Shown here piece by piece: positions 21,814 to 26,446 of a stretch of DNA of 64,000 nt. The position numbers and the translations under genes were made by a program. Source of the DNA: Candidatus Saccharibacteria bacterium HGW-Saccharibacteria-1 (GTDB taxonomy: Bacteria > Patescibacteriota > Saccharimonadia > Saccharimonadales > Saccharimonadaceae); contig PGXZ01000001.1 in the NCBI GenBank assembly GCA_002839415.1, positions 57,259-121,258 of the forward strand, read 5' to 3'. The notes beneath the pieces are model-generated. The model saw nothing but the letters and a program-made list of their open reading frames with translations. It searched no databases and was not told the origin of the DNA. Positions within the stretch are counted from its first letter, which is position 1. Every line of letters begins with the position of its first letter.

Positions 21814-22338
21814 GTGGCCAACCACAGACTTCCAGAAGTAAATGGTGATGAAGGTACCTGGGGTACTATCTTAAATGACTTTCTAACTAATGAACATTAC
21901 AATAATGATAACGCGGGAGTGGGTACGGCGGATAGTGGTGGCCATCAGCACATTACAGTTAGGGCTGGCGCAACCGCTGCTGGGTCGGCACCTATTAAAT
22001 TGACCTCTGGTCCGCTGATGTCAACGTCCGAAGCTGGCGCAGTTGAGTTTTTGTCTGATAATCTTTATTTTACTCAAACAACAGGAAGGGCGCGCAAGGC
22101 GGTAGCGACCTATTATAATGACGCAAATGGCGCAACAGGTGACATGTATTATCGTGACGGTGACGGTAACTTTGCTAGGATTCCAATTGGCCCCGCCAAC
22201 AGCGTGCTATCGTCATCAAATGGAATTCCTATTTGGGCTAGTAACGCTCCAAGTGGCGATACTATCAATAACCTTGATGGTGGTTCAGCGATCAGTGTTT
22301 ATGGTGGTGCGCTTGCTATCAATGGAGGTGGGGCATAA
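21814..22338 (+). CDS. phage tail-fibre-like protein (N-module paralogous to 23462-24166)
   Basis: GTG start 4 nt after the upstream stop, with a GGAG RBS. Shares LPxVNxDxGxWGxILNxF...APIKLxSG...EAGAxEF..D.LYFTQTTG..RKA with the paralogue. Confidence 0.6.
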   Translation: MANHRLPEVNGDEGTWGTILNDFLTNEHYNNDNAGVGTADSGGHQHITVRAGATAAGSAPIKLTSGPLMSTSEAGAVEFLSDNLYFTQTTGRARKAVATYYNDANGATGDMYYRDGDGNFARIPIGPANSVLSSSNGIPIWASNAPSGDTINNLDGGSAISVYGGALAINGGGA

Positions 22339-23369
22339 TGGCTACCTTAATTCAATTCAGGCGTGATACGGCGGCTAACTGGGTAAGTTCTAATCCGACT
22401 TTGGCTCAAGGCGAGCTAGGGCTCGAGCTTGATACGAACAATTATAAAATTGGCAATGGTTCAAGCGCGTGGAATAGCCTTGCGTATTACCAATTTTCGC
22501 CAGAAGTGCTAATGATGCTAATGAGCTTGCAACCTTCTGACCCATCACCACCACCAGTCGGTATGATGAGATTGTACGCAAAATCAGTTACCGGAAGGAC
22601 CTTGCCTAAATATATTGGGTCTAGCGGTCTTGATAGTTTTTTGCAGCCTTTTTTGGCTAGAAATAAAATTGGATATTGGTGTCCACCTGGTAGTGCAACA
22701 ACTATTCCGGGAGTTTTAGGTTATACAGCTCCGACTGTAGTTGGCACGGCAACGGCTCGCACTGTTTCGGTAGTTAATCAATTAACTAGAATGCGTAGGT
22801 TGGGTTATGTTAGTGCTACGACTACTGGTTCGCTAGCTTCTATCAGGGTGGCAGCGGCTCAAATAACTACGGGAAATGGATCGGGATTAGGTGGTTTCTT
22901 TAAGATTACGAGATTTGCTATTAGTGACGCCGCAACGGTTGCAAATGCAAGGATGTTTATTGGGGTGTCATCAACCACTTCTGCGCCTACTAATGTAGAG
23001 CCCTCGACATTACTTAACTGTATTGGCGTAGGTCACGGTGCAGCAAATAGTAATTTGTTTATTTACTACGGAGGTAGCGCAGCCCAAACGCCCATCGACT
23101 TAGGTGTTAATTTTCCAGCGAATACATTATCGGCTGATGTCTATGAATTATCGTTGTTCGCACCCCCTAATGTAGCCGGAACGGTTTATTACGAAGTCAC
23201 AAGATTAAATACCGGACATATTGCAACTGGAACACTGACTGGATCTGGTGTTGCTTTGCCGTCATCAAACACGCTTATGACGTATATGTGGGCATATCGA
23301 ACCAACAATACAACAGCTTTGGCAGTTGGGATTGACTTAATAAGCGACTATATCGAGACTGACTCATGA
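22338..23369 (+). CDS. tail-fibre/receptor-binding-like protein with an Mtd_N/hyaluronidase-type N-terminal motif
   Basis: IQFRRDTAANWVSSNPTLAQGELGLELDTNNYKIGNGSSAWNSLAY. The start overlaps the previous stop (TAATG). Confidence 0.65.
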   Translation: MATLIQFRRDTAANWVSSNPTLAQGELGLELDTNNYKIGNGSSAWNSLAYYQFSPEVLMMLMSLQPSDPSPPPVGMMRLYAKSVTGRTLPKYIGSSGLDSFLQPFLARNKIGYWCPPGSATTIPGVLGYTAPTVVGTATARTVSVVNQLTRMRRLGYVSATTTGSLASIRVAAAQITTGNGSGLGGFFKITRFAISDAATVANARMFIGVSSTTSAPTNVEPSTLLNCIGVGHGAANSNLFIYYGGSAAQTPIDLGVNFPANTLSADVYELSLFAPPNVAGTVYYEVTRLNTGHIATGTLTGSGVALPSSNTLMTYMWAYRTNNTTALAVGIDLISDYIETDS

Positions 23370-23461
23370 GAAATGTACCTATTGTAAACTATGTTTTTTG
23401 TAAATTAGCACAAAAAGACGATATTATTAGCGTGCCTATATTAGGTTTGGGTTTTTAATTC

Positions 23462-24166
23462 ATGGCAGATCAAAGATTGCCAACGGTTAACGCGGATGAT
23501 GGTCAATGGGGTGATATTTTAAATCAGTTCATAAAAAAAGAACATTATGACACTGGTGTAAATAATGCTGCTAATGGTGGGCATAAGAATATAACGGTTC
23601 AGCCGAGCACGGGGGCGGCGGGTACTGCGCCGATTAAATTGATGTCCGGGACCTTGTTGGGTACTGCCGAGGCTGGGGCGATTGAGTTTAATAATGATAG
23701 TCTTTATTTTACTCAAACAACTGGAACTACGCGCAAGGCAATTACGACTAATGATATAAATGGCAATTTACCAGCAAATAACCTAATAGAAGGTTATGTG
23801 GCTACTGCGACTACTGCTGGAACAACAACGCTGACCGTCACAAGCAAATTTCAACAGTATTTCACGGGCTCTACTACGCAAACTGTAGTTATGCCAGTGG
23901 TTTCAGGGCTGACTATCGGCCAGCAGTGGCAAATCAATAATAGTTCAACCGGGGTTGATACGGCCGGCGCGATAACGATTCAATCATCGGGCTTAAATAC
24001 TATTTTAGTATTACCGGCTGGGTCGTATGCCACGCTAACCTGTATTTCAAATTCGGGTACTGGCACAAGCTCATGGGTGTATAGTCAAAATACATCACAT
24101 ATTACCGTCAGTAAAACTCAACCGACGTCGGCCGTAATCGGTGATTTGTGGATTGACTTGAATTAA
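23462..24166 (+). CDS. phage tail-fibre-like protein with a C-terminal knob-like domain
   Basis: N-module paralogous to 21814-22338. The C-terminal FTGSTTQTVVMP...INNSSTG...LTCISNSG...W and final GDLWIDL resemble fibre-tip domains. Confidence 0.65.
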   Translation: MADQRLPTVNADDGQWGDILNQFIKKEHYDTGVNNAANGGHKNITVQPSTGAAGTAPIKLMSGTLLGTAEAGAIEFNNDSLYFTQTTGTTRKAITTNDINGNLPANNLIEGYVATATTAGTTTLTVTSKFQQYFTGSTTQTVVMPVVSGLTIGQQWQINNSSTGVDTAGAITIQSSGLNTILVLPAGSYATLTCISNSGTGTSSWVYSQNTSHITVSKTQPTSAVIGDLWIDLN

Positions 24167-24193
24167 ATGATTTAATAGGAGAACATATATAAT

Positions 24194-24625: not shown

Positions 24626-24636
24626 GTTTGTTTCGT

Positions 24637-24795
24637 ATGATCAATAATTATCAGCAGTTATTATTACCATTAGCTACGACAGGGGCTTTTTGTTATTGGG
24701 CCGAGACATATGTTTATAGTTATCAACGAACGGTTTCTAGCTATATTAATGCTACTTATCAGATTGAAAATCAAGATAAGACAGGAATAAAATAA
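24637..24795 (+). CDS. possible 52-aa protein
   Basis: Internal ATG of ORF 24541-24795 lying just after the upstream stop. It ends 1 nt before the next start. Confidence 0.25.
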   Translation: MINNYQQLLLPLATTGAFCYWAETYVYSYQRTVSSYINATYQIENQDKTGIK

Positions 24796-24796
24796 A

Positions 24797-26446
24797 ATGT
24801 CGACATTAGGAAATTATTTTTCATTACCAGCTCGAACTATTGGTATTTGGCCAGTTGGCAATGCGACAGCTTGGGCTTATGGTTCATGGTATCAACTTAT
24901 CGATAAATTAGATTCGGGTATTTTTGTTTCAGGTATTCAATTTCAGGTCGGTGCGATTCTGGCTACACTAGATACGACAAGAGAGATATTGTTTGAGATT
25001 GGAGTTGGCTTAGCTGGTTCTGAAGTGGTAAAAATGCAGATTCCTTACTCAATTAGATTAGATACGGCTGTTGGATATTACAATTCTAGCGGATACAATT
25101 CAATACGCTTTCCAGAACCGATGCTTATTCCTGCTGGTTCCAGGATAGCCGTCAGGGTTGCTGATAGCTTTGCTGTAGCTGTAACTTACGATGGTTTTAA
25201 GCTAATGTATCGAGAAGTCGTAGACCCAACCGTTGCCCTAGACAGCCCAAGCAATCTCGCGGTAATTACGGATAGAACGCCGGAGGAAATATTTACTGGT
25301 AATTCGGTTGATGGATTTGATTTGGAATATAAAATTCAGATTAATCAGGAAAATGACTTTAGCACTGATCTATCACCTTTATCGCAATCTACCTTGAATT
25401 GGTACGGTGTAGATATTGATTCCTCGAACCAAAATGTCTATGCGGCTGTTGCCGGAGGGGATATTTATAAACAGACTGCCGGTAATGGTAATTTTGTCGC
25501 GCTTGGTCAGACGACAAGAACTTGGTACGCCTTAGCGATTGATTCATCAAACCACGATGTTTACGCATCAGTTCCGGGAACTGATATTTATAAGCAAACC
25601 GGTGGGGTGGGCAGTTTTGTGGCGCTGGGTCAGTCCGCTGCTGCTAGTGTTGGACTTGCGGTAGACTCATCAAATCACAATGTTTATTCGGCAGTCGTTT
25701 CGGTTGATATTTATAAACGAACCGGTGGGGTGGGCAGTTTTGTGGCGCTGGGTGCGGGTGCGCTGGCTTGGGCTGATGTTGCCGTCGATTCGGTTAATCA
25801 TGATGTCTATGCCGTAGTTAGCGGTGGCGACATATATAAACAAACTGCTGGAACTGGTAGTTTCGTAGCGCTGAATCAAGTTATTAGATCTTGGGTTGGA
25901 GTATCGATTGATGGATCTAATCATAATGTCTATGCAATTGTTAATGTTGGCGACTTATATATTCAATATGGAGGATCGGGTGATTTTGTGCCTCAAGGAC
26001 AGCCCGTAAAAGGTTGGTCTTCTGTTTCAGTCGATTCAACAACGCATAATGTTTATGCCGTTCATTATTTTTTGGATATCTATAAACAGACTAACCCAAC
26101 GCCTTTGCTTGAGAAAGTTTCGGTTAGCGATGCTGGTTTTACTGACATAACCAATAGCTCTAATAGTCATCCATTTCCAACTGGCGAGCAAATTAAACAC
26201 ACGGTTCAATCGGCTGATATATTAGGTCCTGGTGTTTATTTTTGGCGAGTTTCGGCTCGCGATCCGCTCGGAACGAATTTTTACAGATCTTGGACTTCGC
26301 CGCAGAGCTTTACGCTTTTAACGGGCCCAAAAACTTGGAATGGTGCGATCTGGGATTATAAACCGCTGAAAGTTTGGGACGGCACTGCCTGGGTCGTGAA
26401 ACCTGTAAAAGTCTGGAATGGTACTTCCTGGATAATTAAAGGTTAA
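24797..26446 (+). CDS. multidomain fibre-like surface protein (N beta-sandwich, about six 41-aa propeller-like repeats, FN3-like region, Trp-rich C-terminal repeats)
   Basis: The repeat unit is W..V.(I/V)DSSNHNVYA.V.GGDIYKQT.G.G.FVALG. The C-terminus reads KVWDGTAWVVKPVKVWNGTSWII. Confidence 0.7.
   Translation: MSTLGNYFSLPARTIGIWPVGNATAWAYGSWYQLIDKLDSGIFVSGIQFQVGAILATLDTTREILFEIGVGLAGSEVVKMQIPYSIRLDTAVGYYNSSGYNSIRFPEPMLIPAGSRIAVRVADSFAVAVTYDGFKLMYREVVDPTVALDSPSNLAVITDRTPEEIFTGNSVDGFDLEYKIQINQENDFSTDLSPLSQSTLNWYGVDIDSSNQNVYAAVAGGDIYKQTAGNGNFVALGQTTRTWYALAIDSSNHDVYASVPGTDIYKQTGGVGSFVALGQSAAASVGLAVDSSNHNVYSAVVSVDIYKRTGGVGSFVALGAGALAWADVAVDSVNHDVYAVVSGGDIYKQTAGTGSFVALNQVIRSWVGVSIDGSNHNVYAIVNVGDLYIQYGGSGDFVPQGQPVKGWSSVSVDSTTHNVYAVHYFLDIYKQTNPTPLLEKVSVSDAGFTDITNSSNSHPFPTGEQIKHTVQSADILGPGVYFWRVSARDPLGTNFYRSWTSPQSFTLLTGPKTWNGAIWDYKPLKVWDGTAWVVKPVKVWNGTSWIIKG
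25400..26095 (+). repeat. in-frame tandem coding repeats, about 123-nt period, 5.6 units
   Basis: A 34-nt identical block AACCGGTGGGGTGGGCAGTTTTGTGGCGCTGGGT occurs at 25597-25630 and 25720-25753, exactly 123 nt apart. Confidence 0.85.

Follow-up and report, generated by a model that had tools for sequence, protein, structure and literature searches.

How does a bacterium come to carry genes of the kind that encode phage tail fibres when no phage accompanies them, and what might it use them for? The question is raised by a chromosomal locus of Candidatus Saccharibacteria bacterium HGW-Saccharibacteria-1 (contig PGXZ01000001.1), of which a stretch of 64 kb, hereafter the window, was analysed. 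A first-pass annotation made from the letters alone had singled out five open reading frames (ORFs) at 21814–26446 as tail-fibre or receptor-binding genes, domesticated rather than part of a prophage, and all five were found there as maximal ORFs. They fall into set A (adapter g174 and head g343) and set B (adapter g234, g143 and head g549), preceded by the small gene g67. Comparison of homologues and gene order identifies the locus as a chromosomal, exchangeable fibre cassette heading a Pam pilus operon, not a prophage. As to function, we put at roughly 55% the probability that the products are domesticated phage-type fibre tips acting as modular, exchangeable surface adhesins linked to the Pam pilus, for recognition of hosts or glycans.

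The phage signature of set A lies in its head, g343. Residues 5–43 match Mtd_N (PF18454) at E 6.7e-15 and 55.2 bits, against a Pfam cut-off of 26.3, and 16 PHROG tail-fibre/hyaluronidase N-terminal matches were obtained, with phrog_13925 covering residues 60–342, which bears out the Mtd- or hyaluronidase-type N-terminus noticed in the first-pass annotation. In the PDB, the HylP hyaluronidases of a Streptococcus pyogenes prophage (2yvv, 2c3f and 6x3m) align with residues 5–51 only; over the N-terminal ~47 residues the alignment gives E 8e-4 to 9e-3, whereas the triple-stranded beta-helix hyaluronidase region is missing from g343, which has a lectin jelly roll instead. The AlphaFold2 (AF2) monomer of g343 has a mean predicted local distance difference test score (pLDDT) of 73, reaching 83–95 in the C-domain and low in the N-terminal region, as would be expected if folding of the latter needs an oligomer. 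Foldseek comparison of the model with the PDB returned legume lectins (E ~1e-6), giving the fold as a concanavalin A (ConA)/legume-lectin-like jelly roll, and comparison with BFVD returned fibre-like phage proteins and collagen-containing giant-virus proteins with E down to 1e-28.

Phage relatives of this head are numerous. Over its last 265 residues g343 shares 62% identity with the C-terminus of gp22 (716 aa) of Rhodobacter phage RcKemmy, whose gene occupies the tail-fibre slot between the holin and a gene transfer agent (GTA)-TIM-barrel host-specificity protein. Full-length homologues of 333–344 aa, with 29–67% identity, are present on about 20 IMG/VR contigs that carry none of the other window genes; on one of them, L034 (UViG_3300020047_008737), a full-length homologue of 66% identity is accompanied by TerL (5e-84) and a major head protein. 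Copies of the C-domain alone (52–63% identity) occur in contigs of Proteobacteria metagenome-assembled genomes (MAGs), one of them together with a tape-measure-like gene. The Mtd_N-lectin gene is immediately preceded, in 19 viral contigs, by a gene that closes with the motif N[ILV]DGGxAxSx[YF]xG...[IL]DGGx, its product often being collagen-like in phages, and the same DGG...IDGG motif ends the upstream gene in all Saccharibacteria loci examined for it, g174 closing with NNLDGGSAISVYGGALAINGGGA. This common joint argues that set A is a shaft-plus-tip module of phages with another part substituted for the shaft; judged by sequence, the joint and the tip of set A derive from a two-gene phage fibre module of this kind. 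Such modules (for example that of L034; the two parts are fused in RcKemmy gp22, and giant-virus fibrils are related) share with set A the tip, the upstream joint motif, the gene order and the tight junction. They differ in having a shaft, collagen-like or coiled, where set A has a 174-aa adapter whose N-module was not found in phages, and in belonging to a virion, whereas set A stands in a bacterial chromosome beside a pilus operon and without a virion. The tip gene is not confined to tail modules: in L034 (8766–10219) and L048/L011 (9774–11035) the Mtd_N-lectin gene lies a few genes past the major head protein and not at the tail-module end, and gp6 of Curvibacter phage P26059A, a tip homologue, is encoded between portal-like and protease genes. 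The lectin tip may decorate heads in some phages.

Within the Saccharibacteria, the best 120 homologues of g343 are all full length, at 59–99% identity and on contigs of up to 1.1 Mb, and by this comparison g343 is a widely conserved chromosomal gene of the group. In more than 12 Saccharibacteria loci a g343 homologue, usually a tandem pair, sits behind a 135–174-aa adapter gene and also adjoins one shared set of secreted-protein genes. A rough neighbour-joining (NJ) tree splits the tandem copies into two old paralogue clades and places the window-lineage copy with viral contigs, a grouping that suggests exchange with phages. Between the same genomes (pairs involving L001, L002, L016 and others), g343 is 60–65% identical where TatC is 30–34% and PamC ~26% identical, the adapters likewise being less conserved than the head, which suggests either a very conserved ligand or frequent transfer.

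Set B is built on the same N-terminus. Those of g234 and g174 are 58% identical over 106 aa (E 2e-39), so that the earlier claim of a module shared by the two adapters holds; its label as fibre-like is not borne out, no phage homologue being detectable, and g234 gave no tblastn match in 50,697 phage records. The first-pass annotation had missed that g143 and the N-terminus of g549 are paralogous (37% identity, E 2e-23). The AF2 model of g143, of low confidence (pLDDT 64), has nine strands, for which Foldseek found only weak matches to viral jelly rolls (E at least 7e-4). The head g549 contains six tandem repeats of 123 nt (41 aa), from 25399 to at least 26056, that are beta-propeller-like, and it ends, much as had been read from the sequence, in three K(T/V)W(N/D)G(A/T)(I/A/S)W (KxWxGxxW) repeats. 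These C-terminal repeats match Rhodobacter phage proteins (61% over 36 aa), weakly, as did the N-domain in phages. Only four full-length homologues of g549 were found, the remaining matches hitting the propeller repeats.

A profile of the N-module retrieved 3,648 clusters at 50% identity, nearly always at residues 1–100 of proteins that range from 104 to more than 2,700 aa, and the module has no Pfam, PHROG or NCBIfam match and no match to PDB sequences or profiles. Pfam searches with nine large N-module proteins were mostly empty, apart from one GDSL esterase and one phage tail tip domain, and a look-up of the clusters yielded no names. The second half of the module (profile positions ~46–104, ...AGTAPLKFTSGxLLTTPEAGAIEFxxDxLYFT...) repeats 4–9 times in giant proteins of 1,500–4,950 aa, including P0324, P0327, P0415 and P0459; this recurrence indicates that it also serves as a repeat unit of long fibres.

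Beyond the N-module, the adapters fall into four classes by their C-termini, each matched to one type of head N-terminus. The DGG...IDGG ending is followed by Mtd_N heads (set A of the window, other Saccharibacteria loci and the viral contigs), and GGSGLSQQQVMAINSMRI is followed by heads beginning MILLKATTE... (L018 and L031), of which that of L018 has the same lectin C-domain (70% identity) and that of L031 is only a distant match (~30%). The ending VIGDLWID(L/M)N, that of g234, goes with heads of the g143 type (window and L029), and GSPxSxTL..NV with heads of the type xRLK(T/S)VQ(Y/F)AFP (L113 and L114). Because adapter C-termini and head N-termini co-vary, we infer that each adapter forms a physical complex with its own head. 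Modular receptor-binding proteins of phages and tailocins have a conserved N-terminal anchor, exchangeable distal parts and anchor-branch arrangements. The N-module proteins resemble them in carrying variable C-terminal parts on a conserved N-terminal anchor, in their matched joints and in their module-exchange hot spot within a fixed frame. They differ in the partner of the anchor, which is the baseplate in phages and tailocins and would be another component here, the cassette being cell-encoded with a pilus operon.

The fixed frame is shared by about 20 Saccharibacteria genomes, in which tatC-tatA, g67, a cassette and the Pam pilus operon follow one another and the content of the cassette differs. 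In relatives whose LepA is 84–90% identical, the order TilS-FtsH-MurJ-LepA-TatC-TatA, g67, cassette and pamC-...-pamR-Gmk is constant, and the first gene after g67 began with the N-module in all cassettes compared. By protein length in aa, where the window has 174+343 and then 234+143+549, the cassettes elsewhere read 234+143+996 (Kelch)+549 in L029, 235+98+319+163 in L030, 159+443 in L031, 159+451 in L018, 338+657 in L032, 219+549 in L113, 304+74+655 in L114 and 171+345+347 in L016, and the contig carrying P0328 has a single fusion of 1,248 aa. Spacing is tight, the g67 stop lying 3 nt before the g174 start, the g343 start overlapping the g174 stop (ATGA) and the g549 stop lying 3 nt before the start of the pamC-like gene on the same strand. 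Judged by this spacing the cassette is probably co-transcribed with the Pam operon; scans for promoters and terminators gave counts not above those of shuffled sequences.

The cassette stands in ordinary chromosome. The window belongs to a Saccharibacteria (TM7) chromosome of the candidate phyla radiation (CPR), its homologues being named Candidatus Saccharimonadales or Saccharibacteria, and all genes named by Pfam are cellular: MFS and ABC transporters, GH1, TilS, FtsH, MurJ, LepA, TatC, TatA, Gmk, HrcA, GrpE, AckA, DnaK, DnaJ, RimK, ComEC, YebC, RuvCAB, RecA, RecX, the type IV pilus proteins PilNMCB, TsaE and RNase Y. As had been claimed, no gene for a capsid, portal, terminase, tape measure, sheath, integrase or lysis protein came up when practically all window ORFs of 100 aa or longer were scanned with Pfam, and no tail, sheath, baseplate, capsid or lysis gene was found within 10 kb in about 20 orthologous loci; the scan covered the 64-kb window of a ~255-kb contig and the flanks of these loci. 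No flanking direct or att-like repeat, adjacent tRNA or break in GC content marks a prophage boundary at the cassette. An Rfam scan of the window found only tRNAs, all far from the cassette; they comprise three tRNA-Met (CAT) within 8 kb and one tRNA-Ala, at 5614–6476 and 13392–13468. Taken with the genuine Mtd_N domain, the C-domain known from a phage fibre slot and the wide chromosomal conservation, these results support the earlier view of domesticated fibres rather than a prophage.

A diversity-generating retroelement (DGR) was also considered and rejected, there being no pair of repeats of the template/variable (TR/VR) kind in 20000–32000 and no reverse transcriptase among the Pfam hits of the window. 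Mtd of Bordetella phage BPP-1 and the cellular DGR variable proteins (LdtA of Legionella and TvpA of Treponema) form a comparison group, LdtA being a Tat-exported surface lipoprotein. Alike are the Mtd_N domain and the idea that a cell puts a phage receptor-binding protein to use as a variable surface ligand-binder. The DGR proteins have a C-type-lectin variable region, a reverse transcriptase and TR/VR, whereas the g343 locus has none of these and its C-domain is a ConA-like jelly roll, and their diversity arises by mutagenic retrohoming, here by exchange of whole gene modules.

On the left the cassette is flanked by core genes (tatAC), as the first-pass annotation had said of both sides; on the right the claim fails, because 7 kb missed by that annotation (26450–33409) intervene before gmk begins at 33431 and form a Pam pilus operon. 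Its three pilins score 141–147 bits against the CPR_Pam_pilin_C cut-off of 55 (NCBIfam), with the direct repeats D3, D5 and D7 located there, and PamC-, PamD- and PamR-like genes complete the match to the Pam pilus of CPR bacteria (Troman et al. 2026, bioRxiv 10.64898/2026.03.03.709456), the position and architecture of g300 and g347 fitting PamC and PamD as described in that preprint. A g186-type gene lies beside PamC in all loci; g186 itself has no NCBIfam match and resembles the pilin C-domain only faintly (E 0.07), and its identity as PamT is not confirmed. Pam genes adjoin the fibre genes in every locus with enough flank. None of g67, g174, g343, g234, g143 and g549 matches the Pam models (CPR_Pam_pilin_C, PamT and PamR); Pam subunits have a pilin domain, a Sec signal and donor-strand architecture, and the fibre proteins, having none of these, are not Pam subunits.

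In one sentence, the preprint mentions a 'tail fibre-like protein' as a consistent neighbour of the pam operon, proposing no role for it; its authors identified no adhesin domain and do not know how the pilus contacts the host. Neither the cassette nor its adapters nor g67 are described there, and literature on phage fibres of Saccharibacteria or epibionts and on the twin-arginine system of Saccharibacteria yielded nothing on the system beyond that sentence. The cassette logic, the N-module family, the joint shared with phages and the link to g67 thus appear to be undescribed, co-localisation having been noted that once.

A locus outside the class bears on where the heads act. In Paceibacterota (L026, 5888–10831, MAG contig JAYWCB010000011.1), a 1,647-aa protein has a Sec signal, a shaft of FSTTS-rich repeats and a terminal lectin domain 52% identical to that of g343, and its gene immediately precedes those of a Pam-like pilin and three PamC/D-like proteins. 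This 'Rosetta-stone' fusion of a secreted protein and the lectin beside Pam-like genes favours an extracellular, pilus-linked role. In the oral Saccharibacterium Southlakia epibionticum, SEML1_0623–0628 form a Pam-like mini-cluster (PapD-like, DUF916 and WxL-like) flanked by RCC1-propeller/FN3 proteins (PMC10633639 supplement), which looks like an analogous arrangement of pilus and propeller; the Southlakia annotation tables list neither Tat, Mtd_N nor tail fibre.

The gene that opens the frame, g67, is tied to the same loci. It scores 37.5 bits (2.1e-9) against the NCBIfam model NF038009, 'twin-arginine translocation system-associated protein', for which the cut-off is 100, and a relative beside tatC in L002 scores 50 bits. 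All 81 homologues are 51–95 aa long, with an invariant M-D-R-[KR]-x-F-L-[KQ]-Y-S-G and C-terminal GFGSGKYG[AV] in the family alignment; more broadly, g67-type proteins of 49–95 aa combine T/D-R-K/Q-x-F-L, a hydrophobic segment and a C-terminal G[FY]GxGx[YF]G. In the window family g67 is always directly upstream of the adapter, and in distant genomes its relatives lie inside the pam operon, between PamR and a PamT-like gene, which ties g67 more tightly to the pam/fibre locus than to tatAC. The tatAC genes lie beside the cassette in the window family and, in other arrangements, in L002, L015 and L016, and are absent within 10 kb in other loci; one comparison of Saccharibacteria genomes found a complete Tat system in only one of those compared. 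An h-region is present in g67. At the twin-arginine position nearly all homologues have R-K, with R-R once and R-Q in L001, and this lack of conservation of the second arginine weakens a plain reading of g67 as a Tat signal.

Table 1. Features of the locus and related genes (window positions unless a locus is named)
Feature	Position	Strand	Properties
tatC	20192–21217	-	Pfam TatC 2.5e-42
tatA	21238–21435	-	Pfam TatA_B_E 2.3e-11
g67, 67-aa Tat-signal-like membrane protein	21607–21810	+	M-D-R-K-x-F-L-K-Y, Gly-rich hydrophobic segment, variable linker, GFGSGKYGA end
g174, adapter A, 174 aa	21814–22338	+	CPR N-module (~residues 1–100), phage-type C-terminal joint
g343, head A, 343 aa	22338–23369	+	Mtd_N at residues 5–43, ConA-like lectin jelly roll at ~residues 60–343
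g234, adapter B, 234 aa	23462–24166	+	Same N-module, other C-terminal domain, ending ...VIGDLWIDLN
g143, small all-beta protein	24194–24625	+	Domain also at the N-terminus of g549 and of the L029 996-aa Kelch protein
g549, head B, 549 aa	24797–26446	+	g143-type N-domain, six-blade propeller-like region, further domain, C-terminal repeats
g300, PamC-like membrane-anchored chaperone	26450–27352	+	Weak Pfam WxLIP_PGBD; DUF916/WxLIP-like, Sec signal, C-terminal transmembrane segment
g186, small secreted protein in PamT position	27349–27909	-	Sec-type N-terminus; PamT-like candidate
g346, Pam pilin	27958–28998	+	CPR_Pam_pilin_C; paralogue
g345, Pam pilin	29085–30122	+	CPR_Pam_pilin_C; paralogue
g358, Pam pilin	30136–31212	+	CPR_Pam_pilin_C; paralogue
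g347, PamD-like second chaperone	31219–32262	+	Pfam WxLIP_PGBD 3.1e-5; transmembrane segment at residue 302
g396, PamR-like (RbmA-like) protein	32219–33409	+	NCBIfam CPR_pilus_PamR 5.6e-50, 170 bits, below equivalog cut-off of 300
g67-type gene, L001	6202–6351		
g67-type gene, L002	5840–6031		
g67-type gene, L007	6365–6565		
g67-type gene, L010	6979–7158		
g67-type gene, L012	6967–7146		
g67-type gene, L015	6927–7103		
g67-type gene, L019	6919–7095		

The window holds a second filament system, a type IV pilus assembly cluster (PilN, PilM, PilC/T2SSF and PilB/T2SSE) on the minus strand at 55059–61255, which includes two unannotated ORFs (55059–55637 and 55995–56576). At 46018–49886, ComEC (46018–47475) and YebC are followed by a protein of 522 aa that has two lamin-tail domains (LTD, 1.1e-27) and may be a surface protein related to DNA uptake. 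At 40942–44773 a MATCAP-like carboxypeptidase (minus strand), a Zn-protease/RimK fusion and a RimK ATP-grasp ligase are grouped, suggesting a system for ligation and trimming of peptide tails.

Under the pilus-linked adhesin reading, the data show homology, fold, synteny, cassette variability, co-variation of the joints and the lack both of phage genes and of signal peptides; for the cassette proteins, physical complexes, an extracellular location, host binding and a link to the pilus are what we infer from it. In this scheme the N-module of g174 or g234 would dock its set onto a conserved cell component, candidates being g67, a Pam pilus subunit and the envelope, and the C-terminal joint of the adapter would bind the matching N-terminal domain of its own head protein or proteins; set A consists of g174 and the Mtd_N/ConA-like lectin tip, set B of g234, g143 and the beta-propeller protein. 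The heads would be glycan- or ligand-binding adhesins shown outside the cell and would help the epibiont to identify its bacterial host or keep hold of it, either in concert with the Pam pilus or in parallel to it, and exchange of the cassette would change the specificity.

Several observations weigh against this scheme. A signal peptide or hydrophobic N-terminus was found in none of the five cassette proteins but in every Pam component: the maximum Kyte–Doolittle hydropathy over 15 residues (KD15) in the first 60 residues is 0.26–0.75 for g174, g343, g234 and g143, against 1.9–2.9 near the N-terminus of Pam proteins, and the only hydrophobic stretch of g549 is internal. The conservation of the lectin head relative to TatC and PamC is unusually high for a determinant of host range, and it is 55–63% identical to copies in phages and prophages of Proteobacteria, hosts unlike the Actinobacteria on which Saccharibacteria are known to live. 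A trimeric state and glycan binding of the heads are predictions from their families. The cryo-EM study of Pam pili reported no cassette protein as part of the filament (bioRxiv 10.64898/2026.03.03.709456), and in Southlakia the Pam-like mini-cluster and the propeller/FN3 genes flanking it were all non-essential in co-culture by transposon sequencing (Tn-seq), disruption of SEML1_0625 even giving a growth advantage (PMC10633639).

A rival reading has lectins that are secreted or surface-bound and act independently of the Pam pilus, for instance in capture of nutrients or polysaccharides or in binding in biofilms, or proteins with a role inside the cell, the linkage to pam and tat being only historical. 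We consider such a role rather unlikely, while noting that cryo-EM reported none of the cassette proteins in the filament, that a lectin domain conserved among phages whose hosts are unrelated points to a generic glycan ligand and that some phage homologues lie in head modules. It sits poorly with a pam linkage that persists through several rearrangements and into Paceibacterota, with the apparent co-transcription with pamC judged by gene spacing and with the g67-like gene inside the pam operon of distant genomes.

In a further reading, the cassette might be a CPR host-range determinant, a plug-in system whose phage-derived oligomeric heads fold in the cytoplasm, are linked by matched adapters to a universal N-module, hitch-hike through Tat on g67 and end up fixed to the Pam pilus at its base or tip, an account we hold to be unlikely. 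Here g67 would combine a Tat-like signal or anchor with a C-terminal docking peptide, GFGSGKYGA, and carry adapter-head sets across the membrane. Hitch-hiking of fibres on g67 is an attractive idea, weakly supported and speculative. If true, it would open a new way to export and display fibres of the phage type and add a new class of proteins dedicated to escorting cargo through Tat.

Signal peptides would be dispensable if the proteins were distal fibres of a phage-tail-like particle (a tailocin, an extracellular contractile injection system (eCIS) or a GTA-like particle) that is assembled in the cytoplasm and released by lysis, with its core genes at another place in the genome. RcGTA offers a parallel, its fibre and head-spike genes lying apart from its main cluster, the best match in an isolated phage is that in the Rhodobacter phage, next to the GTA TIM-barrel-like protein, and the inspected DNA is 64 kb of a ~255-kb contig. 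We nonetheless think this improbable: no tail, sheath, baseplate, capsid or lysis gene turned up in the window or within 10 kb in the ~20 orthologous loci, the genomes are ~0.8–1.1 Mb, the cassette always borders a pilus operon that depends on Sec, neither PHROG nor tblastn against phages matched the N-module, and the Paceibacterota lectin is fused to a Sec-secreted protein.

Slightly less probable still is a role as anti-phage decoy or receptor mask, in which copies of fibre tips would occupy the receptor, possibly the Pam pilus or a wall glycan, of phages bearing the same tip. Real phages do carry full-length tips at 59–67% identity, a neighbouring pilus operon fits, pili being common phage receptors, and the high conservation would suit a fixed self-ligand. 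The same problem of export arises, however, the diversity of heads without Mtd_N (propellers and others) in the same slot would go unexplained, and no defence model is matched; PADLOC models match none of the six proteins (g67 included), by which a known anti-phage defence system was rejected. A decaying prophage remnant or phage cargo without cellular function, to which the phage-type domains, the close phage homologues and the grouping of the window-lineage copy with viral contigs in the rough tree might point, is very improbable indeed, given that all ORFs are intact with tight or overlapping junctions, that homologues are full length across the class with ancient tandem paralogues kept, and that the cassette holds a conserved place beside pam, with no integrase, att-like repeat or adjacent tRNA and with GC content like that of the flanks.

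For the question of how the ultrasmall epibionts among the CPR/Patescibacteria recognise specific hosts, the cassette linked to the Pam pilus offers concrete candidates: phage-derived heads of the lectin and propeller kinds that occupy a hypervariable slot heading a pilus operon, with an adapter logic from which binding partners can be predicted. Confirmation would make the cassette a genomic marker with which host specificity could be predicted or swapped in uncultivated CPR bacteria, and a clear example of a cell that has taken over receptor-binding modules of phages but not the remainder of the tail.

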